The position numbers were made by a program, and so were the translations under genes. Shown in pieces: positions 36,701 to 43,734 of a stretch of 64,000 nucleotides of DNA (its first letter is position 1; the number at the start of each line of letters is the position of its first letter). This DNA is from Halorutilales archaeon Cl-col2-1 (GTDB lineage Archaea; Halobacteriota; Halobacteria; Halobacteriales; Afararchaeaceae). The notes under the pieces were generated by a model. That model saw nothing but the letters and a program-made list of their open reading frames with translations. It had not been told where the DNA came from and searched no databases. The stretch is from assembly GCA_041891055.1 (NCBI GenBank), contig CP169074.1:1088001-1152000 (forward strand), read 5' to 3'.

Positions 36701-36937
36701 AACGTCGTCGACCTCATGAAACGTGACGAGATCGACCTCATAATAAACACACCCGACGAGAAGACGGCGAGGGACGACGGAGCCGACATACGACGCGCCG
36801 CAGTCGACAGGGACGTCACCTATATCACGACAGTGAGAGCCGCCGACGCCGCAGCCGACGCCATAAAGGCAGCGAGGGACGAGGAGATGTCGGTCAAGTC
36901 GATAGAGGACTACATAAACGAGTCGGAGGACGAGTAG
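33731..36937 (+). CDS. carB: Carbamoyl-phosphate synthase large subunit
   Basis: GSGPIVIGQAAEFDYSG, two ATP-grasp halves (EVNPRVSRSS, EANPRSSRT), C-terminal MGS domain. Confidence 0.98.
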   Translation: MPTRTDLDKVLLIGSGPIVIGQAAEFDYSGSQACRAIQEEGIEVVLVNSNPATIMTDPDIADEVYLEPLEPEYVARIIEKEDPDGLIAGLGGQTGLNVAAQLADMDVLEENDVELLGTDLETIHLAEDRQKFYDFIQDIGEKTPRSMTVTSLDEVDDVIDEFGLPVIVRTTYTLGGSGSGVVDTREELEEKVRRGLKLSMNNEVTIDESVEGWKEFEYEVIRDSTDTCITICNMENIDPMGIHTGESTVVTPSQTISDDAHQRMRSTAIKVIRELGIVGGCNIQFAWSDEKDDYTIVEVNPRVSRSSALASKATGYPIARVTAKISVGKSLDEIENDVTKETPAAFEPTIDYVVTKIPRWPFDKFPEVDRTIGSAMKSTGEVMSIGRTFEESYKKALRSLDIVEPEFESEEEVRRYLETPTDIRNFAVLEAFRHDIDVEEVAELTGFDEWYVARAKKIVEKEREIAEEGDQLTEETVEEAKQMGFTDDEIAENAGDGLTRGDVDELKGDATYKMVDTCAAEFEAETPYYYSSWESKNEIKETEGDKALIVGAGPIRIGQGVEFDYCTVHAIQALRERDIEAQIVNNNPETVSTDYDTSDKLFFDPLTLEDVANIVETEEIDSVMTQFGGQTSVNLAVPLSEEIERKGLDSEVVGTSPDSMDLAEDRDRFNSLMDEIGVPQPEGGTGYSEEEALEIADEIGYPVLVRPSYVLGGRAMEIVWDELELREYMEEAVRVSPDHPILIDDFLADSVELDVDAVSDGEDVLIGAIMEHIEEAGVHSGDSACVIPPQNIGEDVLDKARDYVRRIARALDVEGLLNVQMAVQDDEVYVLEANPRSSRTIPFVSKSVGVPIAKIAAGVMMGASIDDFDYEDEPYGEHVTVKEVDLPFDRLPGVSPTLSPEMKSTGEVMGVDYDFGRAFYKAELAAGNALPDTGKIFISVRDKDKDEIVPVARKLDDLGFDLVATEGTQAHLKQNGIEAEFIEKVHEASPNVVDLMKRDEIDLIINTPDEKTARDDGADIRRAAVDRDVTYITTVRAADAAADAIKAARDEEMSVKSIEDYINESEDE

Positions 36938-36975: not shown

Positions 36976-36985
36976 GTGTCTTCGT

Positions 36986-37000
36986 ACCCAACTGGTTTGG
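36986..37000 (+). promoter_or_regulatory. Bat UAS-like site ACCCAACTGGTTTGG upstream of the htr-opsin operon
   Basis: 12/13 defined positions match the Halobacterium bop-regulon UAS ACCCNACTAGTTNGG; followed by TATA-like GATATATA at 37010. Confidence 0.7.
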
Positions 37001-37102
37001 CTGTGTCTTGATATATATCTGTGACGTATATAAGCCGATGCCAGCACCAGGTTCGAGACAGAGTTCTGAGCCGAGAAGGGATTCAAGGGGGGACACGAGG
37101 TA

Positions 37103-38728
37103 ATGCGAGGGTCTGAGTCTGTTCTTCCGAGTAGGCTACGGGAGAGCTACACCGCGAAGCTAACCGCGGTTCTCTTCACAGCCGTAGTGACCACGGTGGT
37201 CTTCGGTGTAGTCCTCCTCAGACAGGTCGAAGAGGGAGTCTCAGACACTACTTCGGGTGTCGTGGGTCTGATACTCCTAAACGTCGTCAACCTGGGTCTC
37301 ATAGGATCGACAATAGGGAGTAACACGGCTATATCACTCGAAGTTCTCCAGAGGAAGTCGTCGAGAATGGGTCGGGGAGACCTCGACGTCGACCTCGAAA
37401 CCGACAGACAGGACGAGATGGGAGACCTGTATGACTCGTTCTCCAAGATGAGGGACTCGCTGAGACAGAAGATAGACGAGGCGGAGCGCGAAAGGGAGAG
37501 GGCAGAGAAACAGAAGAGGATAGCCGAGGAGAGACAGGAGGAAGCCGAGGAACTCAACAGACGTCTCGCGGAACAGGCTGAGAGGTACAAGGACGTCATG
37601 AGGGACGCCGCAGACGGAGACCTCACGAGACGTGTCGACGCCGAGACACGTAACGACGCGATGAGGGAGATAGGAGAGGCTTTCAACAGCATGATGGACG
37701 GCTTAGAGGAAACTGTGGCTAAAGTAAAGGGATTCTCGGACGAGGTCTCCGACTCGACACGTGAGGTCGAGAGAGGCGCGAACGAGATACGTGAGTCGAG
37801 CGAGCAGATAAACAGTTACATACGTGAGATATCACGCGACACCGACGAACAGGACGACAAGCTACAGAACATATCGACCGAGATGAGCGACCTGTCGGCG
37901 ACTATAGAGGAGGTCGCGTCGTCGGCTGACGAGCTAGCGGGGACTTCACAGAGGATGGCTGATCTGGGTCAGGAGGGAAGAGACGCAGCCGAGATAGCCA
38001 TAGACGAGATCAACCAGGTCGAGTCTGAGACCGAGAAGACGGTCGAGGAGATAGTCAAGCTCGACGAACAGATGAAGGAGATAGAGGAGATAGTCGATGT
38101 CATCACCGACATAGCTGAGGAGACCAATCTACTCGCTCTCAACGCGAGCATAGAGGCGGCGAGGGCGGGAGAGGAAGGAGACGGCTTCGCTGTCGTCGCC
38201 GATCAGATAAAGGAGCTCGCCGAGGAGACAAAGAAGTCGGCGTCCGAGATAGAAGAGGTCATATCCGACGTACAGGATCAGACCGAGAGCACAGTGGACG
38301 ACATACGTGAGACGAGCGACAGGATAACCAAGGGTGTCGAGACAGTCGAGGACACCGTCGAATCCCTCGAAGAGATAGTCGGATACGTCGAGGAGACCAA
38401 CTCGGGAGTCCAGGAGATCCGTGACGTGACCGAGAGCCAGGCTAACTCAACACAGGAGGTCGTGTCGGTCACCGACGAGGTCTCCGAGCTCAGCAGAAAC
38501 ACAGCCGACGAGGCGAAGAAAGTCACCGACGAAGCCGAGAGCCAGACCGAGATAGTCAAGTCAGTCTCGGAGAGAGCCGAGAGACTCGCCGATGGAGCCG
38601 ACGACCTCAACGAACTCCTTGAGGGCTTCGATGTCAAATCTAAGTCTGACGTCAACGGCAATGTAACGGCGCGAGGAGTAGAGAGGTCGGATTTAGCACA
38701 CGCAGACGGAAAGGGAGGTGAGAGGTAG
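37103..38728 (+). CDS. htr2: Phototaxis transducer, HtrII-like (2 TM, 2 HAMP, MCP signalling domain)
   Basis: LPSRLRESYTAK and VNLGL..SRMGRGDLDV.LET.R.DE.GDLY..F..MR closely resemble Natronomonas HtrII; IAEETNLLALNASIEAARAGE.G.GFAVVA hairpin. Confidence 0.93.
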   Translation: MRGSESVLPSRLRESYTAKLTAVLFTAVVTTVVFGVVLLRQVEEGVSDTTSGVVGLILLNVVNLGLIGSTIGSNTAISLEVLQRKSSRMGRGDLDVDLETDRQDEMGDLYDSFSKMRDSLRQKIDEAERERERAEKQKRIAEERQEEAEELNRRLAEQAERYKDVMRDAADGDLTRRVDAETRNDAMREIGEAFNSMMDGLEETVAKVKGFSDEVSDSTREVERGANEIRESSEQINSYIREISRDTDEQDDKLQNISTEMSDLSATIEEVASSADELAGTSQRMADLGQEGRDAAEIAIDEINQVESETEKTVEEIVKLDEQMKEIEEIVDVITDIAEETNLLALNASIEAARAGEEGDGFAVVADQIKELAEETKKSASEIEEVISDVQDQTESTVDDIRETSDRITKGVETVEDTVESLEEIVGYVEETNSGVQEIRDVTESQANSTQEVVSVTDEVSELSRNTADEAKKVTDEAESQTEIVKSVSERAERLADGADDLNELLEGFDVKSKSDVNGNVTARGVERSDLAHADGKGGER

Positions 38729-39433
38729 ATGGTTGAGATAACCGACACGACGACATGGTTCTGGATAGGCGCGGTAGGTATGTTCGCGGGAATGGTAGTC
38801 TTCGTAGCCTCAGGTGTCAGGAGCGACGACGAGACGAGGAAGTACTACGGTGTCATAGCCGCGGTCGCCTTCATAGCGTCCGCAGCCTACGCTGCGATGG
38901 CTCTCGGTATAGGCTCGCTCGAGTCCGACGGAGTGACCGTATACCTCCCGAGGTACGCAGACTGGCTGATAACGACACCCCTACTCATACTTGACCTGGG
39001 TCTCCTCGCGGGTGTCAATAAGAAGACGTACGCGGCTCTGATAGGCTCAGACGTCGCGATGATAGGATCGGGAGTCGCGGCGTCGCTCTCGACCTCCTGG
39101 GTCAAGTACGTCTACTTCGGCGTGGGATCGGTGGCTTACGTGGTTCTCCTCTACCTACTCATGAGAACCCTCTCGGACGCCGCGAGGGGCAGAGGAGTCG
39201 CGTCTCTGTTCCAGAAGCTAAGGAACCTGACAGTAGTCCTGTGGTCGGTCTATCCCGTAGTCTGGCTGGTCGGACCCTACGGAACGGGTCTCTTAGAGCC
39301 CGCTACCGAGACTATCATAATACTCTATCTCGACCTCATAACCAAGGTCGGGTTCGGTTTCATACTCGTCAACAGCCACGACGTCCTGTCGTCGATACGT
39401 ACCCCCTCGACGGCGGACGTAGCCGAGACGTGA
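38729..39433 (+). CDS. Microbial rhodopsin, SRII-like/middle-rhodopsin-like, with D-T-D motif
   Basis: 7 TM; PRYADWLITTPLLILD (helix C), LRNLTVVLWSVYPVVW (helix F), YLDLITKVGFG with retinal Lys206; abuts the transducer stop. Confidence 0.95.
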   Translation: MVEITDTTTWFWIGAVGMFAGMVVFVASGVRSDDETRKYYGVIAAVAFIASAAYAAMALGIGSLESDGVTVYLPRYADWLITTPLLILDLGLLAGVNKKTYAALIGSDVAMIGSGVAASLSTSWVKYVYFGVGSVAYVVLLYLLMRTLSDAARGRGVASLFQKLRNLTVVLWSVYPVVWLVGPYGTGLLEPATETIIILYLDLITKVGFGFILVNSHDVLSSIRTPSTADVAET

Positions 39434-39439
39434 TCAGTC

Positions 39440-39646
39440 TCAGTTCCCTTCTACCTCAAAGATAACACCGAAGACGTGGTCGTTAGGACACGAGAGACGT
39501 CTTAGCTTTCCTCCTTGGCTTCGCCGTCCCCGGCTTTCCTCGTTCTCGTAGTCAGTCTCGAAGACCCCTTTTACCGTCGCGTCCCACGGGAGACCCATCT
39601 TGACATTGACACCGCATATGGGACACCGTATATCCCGAACAGGCAT
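39440..39646 (-). CDS. brz: Brz, bacteriorhodopsin-regulating CPxCG zinc-finger protein
   Basis: MP...I.CP.CG..VKMGLP..ATVK.V...C.NDH.F.V.FE matches Halobacterium Brz as recalled; divergent from brp as in the bop cluster. Confidence 0.85.
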   Translation of the reverse strand: MPVRDIRCPICGVNVKMGLPWDATVKGVFETDYENEESRGRRSQGGKLRRLSCPNDHVFGVIFEVEGN

Positions 39647-39695
39647 CGTTGGGAGACGATGGTAGACAAGTGCTTAAGCCTACTCCTTGTTGTAC

Positions 39696-39710
39696 ACCCC
39701 AACAGTTAGG
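39696..39710 (+). promoter_or_regulatory. Bat UAS-like site ACCCCAACAGTTAGG between brz and brp
   Basis: 11/13 match to ACCCNACTAGTTNGG; TATA-like TTTTAATA at 39716; brp ATG 36 nt after the site. Confidence 0.65.
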
Positions 39711-39746
39711 CCTCGTTTTAATAGTGTGACGGAGCCTATTCTAAGT

Positions 39747-40766
39747 ATGACGAGTTTTGGTCTCCGAAGACTACGGAGACGCGGACGGTCGAGTTCGTAC
39801 CTCACGAGGTCGAGGCTCGGTTTACTTTCACTGACGGTCGGCTTCGGTATCTTGGGTCTCGCGGGCATAGGAGTCTCACTGCGTCTCCAGTCTGCCGTCT
39901 ACCTGATAGGGATGGTGGCGATGAACCTCCCCCAGGGTGGCTACGAGAACTTACATAACCTCGACGGACGTGGCACGAGGTTCCAGATGGGATACATAGC
40001 CTCCTACGTACTCACCATAGCGGCTTTCACAGCCGTCTTCTTCTTCGACCCCGTCGTGGGACTGGGTCTCGGCGTCTTTGTCGCGATGGCTAAGGGAGGC
40101 TTCGGAGACCTCAGCGTCTTGGAGACCATCTACGGCGACCACATAAAGACAGATATCCAGAGATGGCTAGCTGCGGCGGTCAGAGGTGGTGTCGTGATGG
40201 TAGTTCCGATGGCTTTCCATCCCGAAGCTTTCTACGGTCTGAGCTCCGTGATGGTGAATATATTCGATCCCGGTGGTCTCACGAGACTCGGATACGGGAG
40301 CTTCGAGACCGCGAGCCGTGTCCTCGGGGCTGTTCTCTGTGCCATAACTGGGGTTTACCTGGTTCTGGGGTACATACGGTCAGACGCGACGGGGTCGTTC
40401 AGGTCTGACGCGGGCGAAATCTTCCTCCTAGTCGCCTACTTCGCAGTGACTCCCGTCGTGGTAGCCGTTGGTCTCTACTTCCCCCTGTGGTACTCGGCGA
40501 GACAGGTCGCCCGTATGAGGGCGGTCGACGACTCCGAGACGGAACGGGACGGCTTTGACGCCCCGGCTGTAGTAGTCTCACTCGTCGTGGCGAGCGTCGT
40601 GTTAGGTGGTCTCGTGTGGTCAGTCTCGCCACAGCCCCTCGGTGGTGCGAGAATCCTACCAGGACTCGTGGCTTTCTGGACGGTATTCGTGAGCATAATA
40701 GCACTTCCCCACGTAGTCATTGGAGGGCTTATAGACAGGTCGAGGGGGATATGGTACGTCCCATGA
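39747..40766 (+). CDS. brp: Brp/Blh family membrane protein (beta-carotene 15,15'-dioxygenase fold; iron-ligand His residues apparently replaced)
   Basis: Polytopic; NLP(Q)GG, AVRGG.VM.VP, YFPLW(Y)SAR(Q), IALPH; located between brz and bat; start trimmed to MTSFG. Confidence 0.82.
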   Translation: MTSFGLRRLRRRGRSSSYLTRSRLGLLSLTVGFGILGLAGIGVSLRLQSAVYLIGMVAMNLPQGGYENLHNLDGRGTRFQMGYIASYVLTIAAFTAVFFFDPVVGLGLGVFVAMAKGGFGDLSVLETIYGDHIKTDIQRWLAAAVRGGVVMVVPMAFHPEAFYGLSSVMVNIFDPGGLTRLGYGSFETASRVLGAVLCAITGVYLVLGYIRSDATGSFRSDAGEIFLLVAYFAVTPVVVAVGLYFPLWYSARQVARMRAVDDSETERDGFDAPAVVVSLVVASVVLGGLVWSVSPQPLGGARILPGLVAFWTVFVSIIALPHVVIGGLIDRSRGIWYVP

Positions 40767-40841
40767 CCAAAAACGACAGTCACCCGGAGAGAAATCGAGA
40801 AATAACCACGAAAGAAACAAGACTAGACAGGTCAAGATAAG

Positions 40842-42872
40842 ATGACGGATCAAGGAAGGATACTCTACGCAGGCGGTGAGATAGACGGTATCAGCCCTGA
40901 GTCGGTAGACGAGAGTCTCGACCGGCTCGAGGTCGTACACGAATCCGACTTCGTCACGGCTCTCGAATCCGCCAGGGAAACCGACGTCAGAGGCGTGATC
41001 GCCTCCCACCGGACTAACGGCTTCAGAGGCGTCGACCTACTTGAGTCGATGCGTCAGGAGGGGCTGGGAATCCCCGTAGCCGTGGTAGTTCGGGAGGAGG
41101 AGGCAGGCGAAGTGGCACGCAGAGCAGTCGAAGCCGACGCCACGGCTTTGGTGCCAGCAGGCGATGACGACGCTCTCGAAGCCTTAGCTGACGCGATCGA
41201 GAGAAACATGAGCACCGAGGATGGACGTAGACGTGAAGAAGACAGACGTATGCCAATATCCGACCTGCCCTTCGAGGACGAGAGACGTCTCAAGGAACGT
41301 GTCCTTGACGAGGCACCCATAGGAATCACGGTCTCGAACGCCGACGACCCCGATAACCCCATAATCTACCTCAACAAGTCGTTCGAGAGTCTGACTGGGT
41401 ACTCGGCCGAGGAGGTAGTGGGTGCGAACCACAGGTTTCTACAGGGAAGCGAGACCGACACCGAGAAGGTCGAGGAGCTCGGAAGAGGTGTCTCAGAGGG
41501 GCGTGACACACGGGTTACACTGCGTAACTACACCCGGGACGGTGACCTCTTCTGGAACCAGGTAGACGTAAGCCCTATATCCGACTCAGAGAACGAGACG
41601 TCTTATTACGTGGGGTTCCAGATGGACGTCACCGAGCGCGAGAGATTCAGACACGAGCTTGAGGAGGAGCGCGAGGCTTTCGACCGTCTCATAGACCGGA
41701 TGAACAGTCTCATCAACGACATCACGAGATGTCTTGTACGTGCCGAGAGCCGCGAGGAGGTCGAGGAGTCAGTCGTCGAAAAGCTCGGCGAGGAGTACGA
41801 TCAGGCTTGGATCGGAAGGTACAGCCCCACGGACGGCGAGGTGACTGTAGACGAGACCTCGATACGAGACAGAGAGGAACGACAGAATAGAATCAGCGTC
41901 GGAGAGGAAGACTCCGAGCGAGTAGTGAGTGACGTAGTCGAGAGACACGAGACAAGTGTCGTCGAGGGCGACGAAGCCGAGTCCCTCCGTCGTCGTATAC
42001 TGGACGGGTCAGTCGACGACTCCAAGTCGGGGTCTTCTTTCTGTGTCACCGTCCCCGTGACCTACCAGTCGACGACATACGGTGTGATTGGTGTCTGGGG
42101 AGACGGTGAGAGACTCGACACCAGGGAGCCTGGGCTTCTCGCGTCGGTCGCCAGAAGCGTTGGGGCATCGATCAACGACGTCTTGACTAAGAGGACTATG
42201 TCGACCGACTCGGTGGTGCGCCTGGGTATTCGGATAGAGAACGACGGATCGCCTCTCGTGGAAGTCGCCGACGAGGTTGGAGGGAGTCTCGAATACGAGG
42301 GTGCCGTGACACAGGGCGGCGGTATAGCTATACTCGTGAGTACGTCAGCCGACCCAGGGGAAGCCGTCGAAGCTGCGGGACAGAACAGCGGCGTTGTAGA
42401 CGCCGAGGTACTCGTCTCAGACGAAGAAGGAACTGTTGTACAGATACGTGTCGATCGAATCGGTCTCGTGAGTGAGGTCTCCGAGCACGGTGGCCGTCTG
42501 AGGTCGATGGAGGTGACACCCAACGGCGTCGAGGCGGAGCTGGACGTCGGAAACGAGAGAGAAGCACGCCGTCTCCTCGACCGTCTGAAACAGACCTACT
42601 CAGGGTCGGAAGCTGACGTCAGTCTCGCAACCTACAGAACAGTAGAGGAAGCATCACAGACGACACAAGGCTTCAGAAACGAGGTAAGAGACCGTCTGAC
42701 ACAGCGTCAGATGACAGCCCTCCAGAAGGCGTATACGGGAGGCTTCTTCGACTGGCCCAGGCGTGTCGAGGGCGAGAGGCTCGCCGAGTCGATGGACATA
42801 GTTCCGTCGACCTACCACCAGCATCTACGTACCGCGGAGAGAAAGCTCATAGAGGCTTTCCTAAACGGCTGA
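40842..42872 (+). CDS. bat: Bacterio-opsin activator (receiver-like + LOV/PAS + GAF + HTH_10)
   Basis: DNPIIYLN..F..LTGY..EEVVGANHRFLQG LOV, GAF, and LT.RQ..AL..AY..GFFDWPR...HLR.AERK HTH. Confidence 0.92.
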   Translation: MTDQGRILYAGGEIDGISPESVDESLDRLEVVHESDFVTALESARETDVRGVIASHRTNGFRGVDLLESMRQEGLGIPVAVVVREEEAGEVARRAVEADATALVPAGDDDALEALADAIERNMSTEDGRRREEDRRMPISDLPFEDERRLKERVLDEAPIGITVSNADDPDNPIIYLNKSFESLTGYSAEEVVGANHRFLQGSETDTEKVEELGRGVSEGRDTRVTLRNYTRDGDLFWNQVDVSPISDSENETSYYVGFQMDVTERERFRHELEEEREAFDRLIDRMNSLINDITRCLVRAESREEVEESVVEKLGEEYDQAWIGRYSPTDGEVTVDETSIRDREERQNRISVGEEDSERVVSDVVERHETSVVEGDEAESLRRRILDGSVDDSKSGSSFCVTVPVTYQSTTYGVIGVWGDGERLDTREPGLLASVARSVGASINDVLTKRTMSTDSVVRLGIRIENDGSPLVEVADEVGGSLEYEGAVTQGGGIAILVSTSADPGEAVEAAGQNSGVVDAEVLVSDEEGTVVQIRVDRIGLVSEVSEHGGRLRSMEVTPNGVEAELDVGNEREARRLLDRLKQTYSGSEADVSLATYRTVEEASQTTQGFRNEVRDRLTQRQMTALQKAYTGGFFDWPRRVEGERLAESMDIVPSTYHQHLRTAERKLIEAFLNG

Positions 42873-42915
42873 TATGTCGGGAGCCTCTGAAGCAAACCCA
42901 AGAGGGTGGTAGATT

Positions 42916-43734
42916 ATGTCTTACCTCGCCTATGTGACTGTGTCAGTAGTGGGGGTCTCAGGTGTGGTGGCTATCGTAGCGTGGCACAGACGGGGACTGA
43001 GAAGGCTGTCCGACGTCCTCGGTGTAGGTGTCCTGAGCCTGATAGCCGTGGGTTACACATTCGGATGGGACGCGTATCTCATATACAGGGATGTATGGTG
43101 GTACGGCGACGGTGTCGTAAGCTTCCGCATCGTAGGAGTCCCCGCAGGGGAGATACTCTTCTTCGTAGCCCAGACTTCGCTGACATCGTTCTGGCTGTAC
43201 AGTCTCAAGCCCGACTTCGGCAGGAGTCTCGGAGAGACCGAGCCCGATAGACACCGCGACGGATTCGGGCTCGACCCGGCTCTCGTTACTGTCGTTCTAG
43301 GAGGCGTATCAGGTCTCCTTCTCGTCTTCGTGGCTCCCCAGAGGTACTACTACCTGGGTCAGATACTCGTCTGGGGAGCCCCGATGGTGTTCTTCCTCTG
43401 GTACGTCGGCAGTGAGATACTCCGTGAAAACATACGTCTCGTCGTAGCCGGAGTGGCTGTTCCGACCGTATACCTCTGGGGAGTCGACAGAGCCGCTATA
43501 CAGAGGGGTCTCTGGACCATCTCGGAGGAACACTCGACCGGAATAGGACTTCTAGGTCTACCCTTGGAGGAGATGGTGTTCTTCGGAGTGACTAACAGCC
43601 TCGTCGTCTTCGGCTTAGTCCTATATCTCTGGGTGGCTGAGCGCGCTAGAGACGGAGAAAAAGAAGAGGACTATCTGACTGGCATGAGACGCCTGATACT
43701 CGGGGTCAGAGACGGGGACGGGAACACGAGATAG
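42916..43734 (+). CDS. crtY: Lycopene beta-cyclase (fused CrtYc/Yd type)
   Basis: Two repeats: WD.YLI...VW.Y/GVP.GEILFF and D..AI..G.W.I/GLPLEEMVFF. Confidence 0.9.
   Translation: MSYLAYVTVSVVGVSGVVAIVAWHRRGLRRLSDVLGVGVLSLIAVGYTFGWDAYLIYRDVWWYGDGVVSFRIVGVPAGEILFFVAQTSLTSFWLYSLKPDFGRSLGETEPDRHRDGFGLDPALVTVVLGGVSGLLLVFVAPQRYYYLGQILVWGAPMVFFLWYVGSEILRENIRLVVAGVAVPTVYLWGVDRAAIQRGLWTISEEHSTGIGLLGLPLEEMVFFGVTNSLVVFGLVLYLWVAERARDGEKEEDYLTGMRRLILGVRDGDGNTR

Follow-up and report, generated by a model that had tools for sequence, protein, structure and literature searches.

What does a bop-type regulon control when its only opsin is coupled to a taxis transducer? This question is raised by a 64,000-nucleotide stretch of the genome of Halorutilales archaeon Cl-col2-1 (contig CP169074.1; called the window here, with coordinates given as positions in it), where genes for the regulators Bat and Brz and the retinal-synthesis genes brp and crtY surround an operon of a transducer gene, htr, and an opsin gene. 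Our analysis supports the view that this cluster is a regulon of the bop type, made up of Bat, Brz, Brp and CrtY, and that the one opsin in it is coupled to Htr. Judging from sequence, we favor, at a probability of about 0.6, the reading that the operon encodes a phototaxis receptor with its transducer and that Bat and Brz control its expression, alongside that of the retinal-synthesis genes, through a bop-type promoter.

Gene calls taken from a listing of open reading frames (ORFs) and from Pfam and NCBIfam family scans agree with the gene order proposed earlier from the letters alone (the sequence-only reading): carB, a site resembling the upstream activator sequence (UAS), a 21-codon ORF, htr, the opsin gene, brz on the opposite strand, brp, a 25-codon ORF, bat and crtY. 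The htr gene (37103–38728, plus strand) encodes a transducer with two transmembrane (TM) segments, a HAMP domain (PF00672) and an MCPsignal domain (PF00015), and most of its length aligns at 41–53% identity with transducers whose genes immediately precede an opsin gene in 46 other loci. The opsin gene (38729–39433, plus strand; 234 amino acids) starts at the base right after the htr stop codon (38728/38729), and its product matches the Bac_rhodopsin family (PF01036) with 215.5 bits (E 8.7e-64).

Promoter and genomic setting of the operon

In nine canonical clusters, bop is preceded by a site of the form TACCGAAnTGnTTTGG, with a TATA-like box about nine bases further on. We built a weight matrix from these nine bop-promoter sites, which come only from other genera and of which five same-genus sites were down-weighted. 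The site upstream of htr, TACCCAACTGGTTTGGCTG (36985–37003, plus strand), scores 21.76 bits, within the range of the training sites (17.7–28.3), and ranks first among the 4,129,110 positions of the genome. It has the same site-to-TATA spacing as the bop promoters, its spacer GCTGTG is common to the bop promoter of locus L034, and reading the sequence on its 3' side reveals two TATA-like A+T stretches (gatatatat and gtatataag; 37010–37034, plus strand). The UAS that the sequence-only reading placed here is thus upheld as a predicted bop-type site, and the conclusion that the htr-opsin operon carries a bop-type promoter is strongly supported by the matrix comparison.

The UAS itself was reportedly defined by Baliga and DasSarma in 1999 and by Baliga and colleagues in 2001, with the consensus ACCcnactagTTnG, which we replaced by the empirical matrix. 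Scanning for a palindromic UAS consensus gave nothing decisive, with no clear site upstream of either crtB copy. The runner-up in the matrix search (19.43 bits; C1:780272–780290, corresponding to L158:3773–3791, minus strand) lies upstream of a DUF7110 gene that is divergent from a PAS histidine kinase gene, and this DUF7110 gene is a possible further member of the regulon.

The genome (2,064,627 bases in four contigs, 99.47% complete) holds one match to the Pfam Bac_rhodopsin profile and one to the Brp/Blh family, both in the present locus. The absence of bop that had been claimed is therefore borne out, and the genome-wide search for bop and blh that was to check it returned no second opsin and no second Brp/Blh gene. 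The genome is without an ion-pumping rhodopsin, and an RPE65-type carotenoid oxygenase was likewise not found in the genome search. Two phytoene-synthase matches and three BAT-domain proteins are also present. For taxis, there are nine full MCPsignal matches over the cut-off (13 rows in all), three CheW-domain matches and three archaellin matches; because Che and archaellum genes are present, a pathway for an Htr exists. One of the CheW-domain matches (C1:1395918–1396292) lies within a 695-amino-acid frame read across one TGA, beside che and archaellin genes; the frame could represent two separate genes or a cheA that is broken.

How widely is this arrangement shared? Of the 301 genomes surveyed in the order, 62 have a Brz match over the Pfam cut-off, and the loci of the 60 best matches from genomes other than the present one were retrieved. 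A Bat orthologue is present in 12 of these 60 loci. Among those from other genera, nine have an opsin gene within 10 kb, the opsin nearest to brz being of the bacteriorhodopsin (BR) type in 9/9, and no match to htr was found in any of the 59 other-genus loci. Approached from the opsin side, 60 stretches representing 61 of the 74 best opsin rows outside the genus had htr directly upstream of the opsin in 46 cases. Five of these 46 (L063, L066, L083, L092 and L101) also carry crtY and a Blh-type gene, so that a sensor beside retinal genes recurs. The Brz profile had no hit in the 60 opsin-anchored loci, and no Bat orthologue occurs in the 46 htr-opsin loci. A distant Bat-family paralogue (L098:7167–8708; 24% identity, 93 bits) lies about 900 bases downstream of the opsin of one htr-sop locus.

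Among both surveys, only the locus of a sister species (locus L049 of genome G001) mirrors this arrangement. A sensor inside a Bat/Brz/Brp cluster is thus rare, occurring in this genus alone in the surveys. It had been considered that the arrangement might prove widespread, or that a normal bop might lie elsewhere; neither was seen in the surveys or the genome search. A literature search, with most subscription journals outside its coverage, found no transducer-coupled rhodopsin with the D-T-D motif described below and no htr-sop operon in a bat cluster.

Like the bop regulons known from Halobacterium salinarum and other genera (bop, brz, brp, bat and crtY/blp), the present cluster has orthologous Bat and Brp and a probable Brz orthologue, a divergent region between brp and this putative brz, and an activator-like site, spacer and TATA-like box ahead of the opsin unit. 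It differs in that its target consists of htr and an opsin of the sensory clade rather than a BR-type pump, in that the opsin unit is convergent with brz instead of lying downstream, in leaving no space for brb after brz, and in a Brp without three conserved His. The five crtY/blh-flanked htr-sopII operons (the Natrialbaceae-like L066, L083, L092 and L101, and also L063) similarly place a sensor operon beside retinal-synthesis genes, and the sensor may be the main user of retinal in those genomes. Unlike the present cluster, however, they have a Blh with all its His, no Bat or Brz nearby, DTF or DTY opsins and a different promoter motif.

Residues and ancestry of the opsin

Residues were compared across 218 opsins drawn from database hits and the fetched loci, of which 136 are sensory-type and 62 BR-type. 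The present opsin has the seven-helix Bac_rhodopsin fold with the Schiff-base Lys and a counterion Asp. Its helix C carries Arg, Asp, Thr and Asp, giving the D-T-D motif RYADWLITTPLLILD, in which Asp78 is the equivalent of BR Asp85 and Asp89 that of BR Asp96, the proton-donor position. Sensory rhodopsins are defined in PMC9117797 and PMC12078690 by DTF or DTY and by the lack of a carboxylate at the BR Asp96 position. That position is Tyr in 91 and Phe in 45 of our sensory-type sequences, and Asp in 0/136. The earlier observation of a D-T-D motif with a donor Asp in an Htr-coupled opsin therefore holds.

To call this a pump-motif opsin, as the sequence-only reading did, is nevertheless an overstatement. 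Asp96 and Met118, the latter common to this opsin and the pumps, are pump-like, but the protein shows the sensory state at the Thr46, Glu194, Ser141, Val210 and Ala215 positions. Four of these (Thr46, Glu194, Ser141 and Ala215) are each found in 62/62 BR-type sequences and are Ile, Tyr, Gly and Thr here, and the Val210 position is Tyr, the sensory-type state; Asp115 and Glu204 are frequent in both pump and sensory groups. Because the pump-invariant residues are replaced and only Asp96 and Met118 are pump-like, the opsin is, by its residues, of the sensor type, pump-type states being limited to one or two positions, rather than a pump with sensor additions.

The closest relatives of the system are the sensory rhodopsin II (SRII)–HtrII pairs of Natronomonas pharaonis (NpSRII) and Halobacterium salinarum. 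Common to both are the htr-opsin operon with htr directly upstream, a two-TM transducer with a short outer loop followed by HAMP and MCP domains, and the SRII binding and signaling residues (Tyr174, Tyr199 and Thr204 in NpSRII numbering, together with the Asp75 and Asp201 equivalents). The opsin is 42–52% identical to SRII-type proteins and falls in the sensory clade. It is unlike SRII in having Asp for Phe or Tyr at BR Asp96, Met at BR 118 and Glu for Thr at NpSRII 189, and in that its operon follows a bop-type promoter and is embedded in a brz-brp-bat-crtY cluster. Its closest database relative, from the sister species, is 96% identical and the next 52%; among solved structures, deltarhodopsin and NpSRII score about equally (E about 5e-53).

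A D-T-D motif next to sensor-type features has a precedent in the middle rhodopsin of Haloquadratum walsbyi (HwMR), which has D-T-D and, beside its Schiff-base Lys, the Thr specific to sensors (PMC12078690; L113, L150 and L151). HwMR has no transducer and does not pump protons (PMC12078690 and PMC13269893), which shows that a protein with D-T-D plus Thr need not be a proton pump. It further differs from the present opsin, to which it is only 41–43% identical, in having Met or Val at the Tyr199 site and in keeping Thr46. We also searched with a degenerate DNA pattern encoding D-T-D plus Thr, which requires GAC before TGG and exact residues and so can miss variants. Among one-genome-per-species contigs it matched only two Haloquadratum metagenome-assembled genomes (MAGs). 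Six metagenome contigs also matched; the five with a called opsin all lack Tyr199, the sixth (L157, 1843 bases) gave neither a call nor a match for an opsin, and htr matches were absent from all six.

Sensory-clade membership of the opsin is solid. A careful IQ-TREE tree of 49 rows with a halorhodopsin outgroup gave a basal grade of BR-type rows, then a middle-rhodopsin-like row and two small groups, and then a sensory clade (support 99/95) that includes the present opsin; a quick tree of 110 rows placed it there as well (98 in the SH-like approximate likelihood-ratio test). The phylogeny proposed as a check thus confirmed the sensory identity, and the opsin does not group with the BR-type pumps. 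A joint clade with the middle-rhodopsin-like row was rejected by the approximately unbiased (AU) test (p 0.004), and htr is present here, so membership among the middle rhodopsins was set aside.

Within the sensory clade, the tree divides three ways into the present genus, SRI-like rows and all remaining sensors (83/89). A basal position, and hence retention of the donor Asp instead of reversion, is allowed by this topology. The AU test, however, did not reject (p 0.126) grouping the genus with the SRII-like subclade from which its best BLAST hits come, in which case the donor Asp would be a reversion. The sequence-only reading had suggested a preserved intermediate between BR and SRII; a sensory-clade opsin with a donor Asp makes this a possible reading, alongside the nested placement. 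It is tempting to speculate that the genus keeps a near-ancestral sensory-rhodopsin state, in which the opsin was born from bacteriorhodopsin within the Bat/Brz regulon, already Htr-coupled and with its donor Asp kept. We regard this as rather doubtful. If true, the organism could use its single rhodopsin for phototaxis and, when the protein is free of Htr, for a measure of proton pumping.

Bat, Brp and the competing explanations

The sequence-only reading saw three components, the opsin, Bat and Brp, deviating together, and this claim did not survive comparison. The bat gene (40842–42872, plus strand) encodes an activator of PAS, GAF, BAT and HTH_10 regions, the PAS being LOV-like and a His variant. 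PAS_9 (62.9 bits), BAT (90.6) and HTH_10 (74.7) exceed their Pfam cut-offs and GAF_2 (19.9) falls below its own of 28.6. The protein is 39–51% identical (386–570 bits) to the Bat proteins of 11 canonical clusters of other genera. It reads GANHRFLQG, so the reported His at the LOV Cys position is present. The corresponding stretch of those orthologues is NHRFLQG in five of 11 and NCRFLQG in six, and the His forms adjoin ordinary BR-type bop genes. The His of Bat is therefore a subfamily trait and not a deviation.

Brp (39747–40766, plus strand, from an ATG at 39747) is a Brp-type member of the Brp/Blh family, with the family fold well matched (PF15461, BCD, 201.4 bits, E 2.7e-59; TIGR03753, 193.5 bits). 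It is of the bop-cluster type, with 44–56% identity to Brp from such clusters versus 26–34% to the Blh type found beside other htr-sop operons. The claim that Brp lacks its His ligands is right in part. Where 24/24 other Brp/Blh proteins have PHG..(D/E)H, it reads PQGGYEN, two invariant His being replaced by Gln and Asn, and a third His, present in 10/10 Brp-type proteins, is Tyr; two further His that are nearly universal, equivalent to His132 and His322, are nevertheless kept, so the loss is only partial. The candidate iron ligands of Blh are His-21, 78, 188, 192 and 256 according to bioRxiv 10.64898/2026.08.06.743266, and Brp does not carry this full set on a Blh-to-Brp residue mapping that we infer. 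All 12 Brp-type proteins have WYSxRQ versus WH(S/A)xRH in all 14 of the Blh type, and the HxxxH pair of those 14 is missing from all 12. Of the His put forward as iron ligands in Blh, two are thus already lacking in canonical Brp.

Under the favored reading, Bat and Brz would switch on htr-opsin along with brp and crtY, presumably at low oxygen or in light. Light would isomerize retinal, the Schiff-base proton would pass to Asp78, and helix movement would turn TM2 of Htr, with the signal relayed from HAMP through CheA and CheY to the archaellum. Asp89 would most likely speed Schiff-base reprotonation and not make a working pump. As for origin, the starting point may have been a canonical brz-UAS-bop order. 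Either an htr-sop unit then captured the bop promoter, with inversion of the unit, or the sensor developed at the site itself.

Several findings sit uneasily with this. The training sites of the matrix were chosen by eye after the motif in the window had been seen, so the matrix is not free of choice. The counterpart of the activator-like site in the sister species has two changes (GCC.. and ..TTT) and scores 16.1 bits; these changes and a frameshift in bat suggest that Bat control may be relaxed there, or that the MAG assembly is wrong. The second UAS that the sequence-only reading placed between brz and brp received no support from the matrix. The motif concerned, ACCCCAACAGTTAG (39696–39709, plus strand, in the divergent promoter region), is a weak candidate that fits only the loose pattern ACCN6GTTNG, scores -0.16 bits with the bop matrix and belongs to a pattern that is unenriched (10 in the window versus 6.8 expected; 151 in the genome). 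It is identical in G001, and similar motifs occur in the brz-brp spacers of L008, L009, L011 and L020. A Brp without two invariant His, in a genome where an RPE65-type oxygenase was not found, puts the source of retinal in question, and a purely sensory role does not explain the Asp at the donor position.

This last point is where a dual function would have its appeal: Htr-bound opsin would signal, and a free pool might pump protons outward with Asp89 as donor, as the only phototrophy of the genome. The pump-like D-T-D and Met118, a donor Asp seen in none of the 136 sensory-type sequences and the lack of a further rhodopsin would all fit. Free NpSRII pumps weakly, and the F86D change together with L40T is reported to speed the NpSRII photocycle. 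The promoter and regulators are also of the bop type, which serves phototrophy in Halobacterium (PMC2253796 and PMC3184054). However, the loss of Thr46 and Glu194, together with the HwMR precedent, weakens a dual pump-sensor role; Ser141, Val210 and Ala215 are in the sensory state too, and the tight translational packing of the opsin behind htr favors complex formation. We therefore consider a dual function unlikely, though deserving serious attention.

While the adjacency could also be incidental, with an ordinary SRII-type operon beside retinal genes, Bat and Brz acting on brp and crtY only and the Asp neutral or tuning, this seems quite improbable to us. The five other-genus loci with crtY and a Blh-type gene next door are consistent with it, as are the unrejected sister relationship to one SRII-like subclade and the degraded activator site of G001. 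Yet Brz and Bat orthologues are missing from all 46 htr-opsin loci, the Bat paralogue of L098 being distant. Moreover, the best bop-promoter match of the genome falls precisely in front of htr, as far from it as a promoter would be, and Brp is of the bop-cluster and not the Blh type.

Least probable of all, in our view, is a relic in decay, a regulon eroding after the loss of bop, with the opsin system on its way out or running on scavenged retinal. The His losses in Brp, the lack of an alternative carotenoid oxygenase among the genome matches and the shifted bat frame of G001 would agree with such erosion. That frame shift is a 43-base insertion at a G8 run (L049:985–1038; about 42027 in the window), which splits the gene into frames of 402 and 334 amino acids; it could be either a real pseudogene or an assembly error, and its position at a homopolymer in a 120-contig MAG leaves room for the latter. 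Every frame is intact in the present genome, and ratios of nonsynonymous to synonymous substitution (dN/dS) between the two species are 0.15 for opsin, 0.18 for htr, 0.22 for brp and 0.37 for brz. These values indicate purifying selection, and hence that the four genes are maintained. Synonymous divergence from L049 is itself uneven (htr 0.15, opsin 0.13, brp 0.25, brz 0.49).

The locus bears on the link between pumps and sensors. A few laboratory mutations turned bacteriorhodopsin and middle rhodopsin sensor-like (work cited in PMC13269893), and a natural pump-sensor link that also has a transducer was missing. The present locus is a candidate, combining a sensory-clade, Htr-coupled opsin that has a donor Asp with the regulon and promoter type of a pump, in a genome without one. 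It raises the questions of what Asp96 does in a sensor, whether Bat and Brz can drive a taxis receptor and how retinal is obtained from a Brp without conserved His. A natural transducer-coupled D-T-D rhodopsin in the regulatory setting of a pump makes experimental follow-up worthwhile.

Neighboring genes and smaller observations

Upstream, carB ends at 36937. The putative 21-codon ORF (37038–37103, plus strand) precedes htr, its stop codon overlapping the htr ATG as TAATG; the frame is kept in G001 with three amino-acid changes and a TGATG junction. On the other side of the operon, brz (39440–39646, minus strand) is predicted to encode a small zinc-ribbon regulator and is convergent with the opsin gene, from whose stop codon six bases separate it. 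Its product matches Zn_ribbon_Brz (PF23454) with 53.7 bits, over the cut-off of 27.9, and the NCBIfam Brz equivalog NF041795 with 69.2 bits, below the cut-off of 100.

Between brp and bat lies a 25-codon ORF in a purine-rich spacer (40763–40840, plus strand), which overlaps the brp stop codon and ends one base short of the bat start. In G001, 77 of its 78 bases are the same, so that it is better kept than the flanking genes (synonymous divergence at least 0.25), and it could encode a conserved small peptide, contain an internal promoter or act as an RNA element. The cluster closes with crtY (42916–43734, plus strand), a lycopene cyclase gene (TIGR03462, E 3.1e-33; PF18916).

Two observations concern other genomes. 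In many genomes of one family (loci L021–L023, L026, L030, L031 and L039), a Brz-like gene stands beside a Bat paralogue (28–31% identity, 147–182 bits), far from any opsin. In L066, L083 and L092, which represent three genera and have crtY-blh divergent from htr-sopII, the crtY-htr intergenic region has the conserved motifs TAATGAACGAT..GGC.AACG and CACTGTTGGCCA just before a TATA-like box, unlike the bop-type site.

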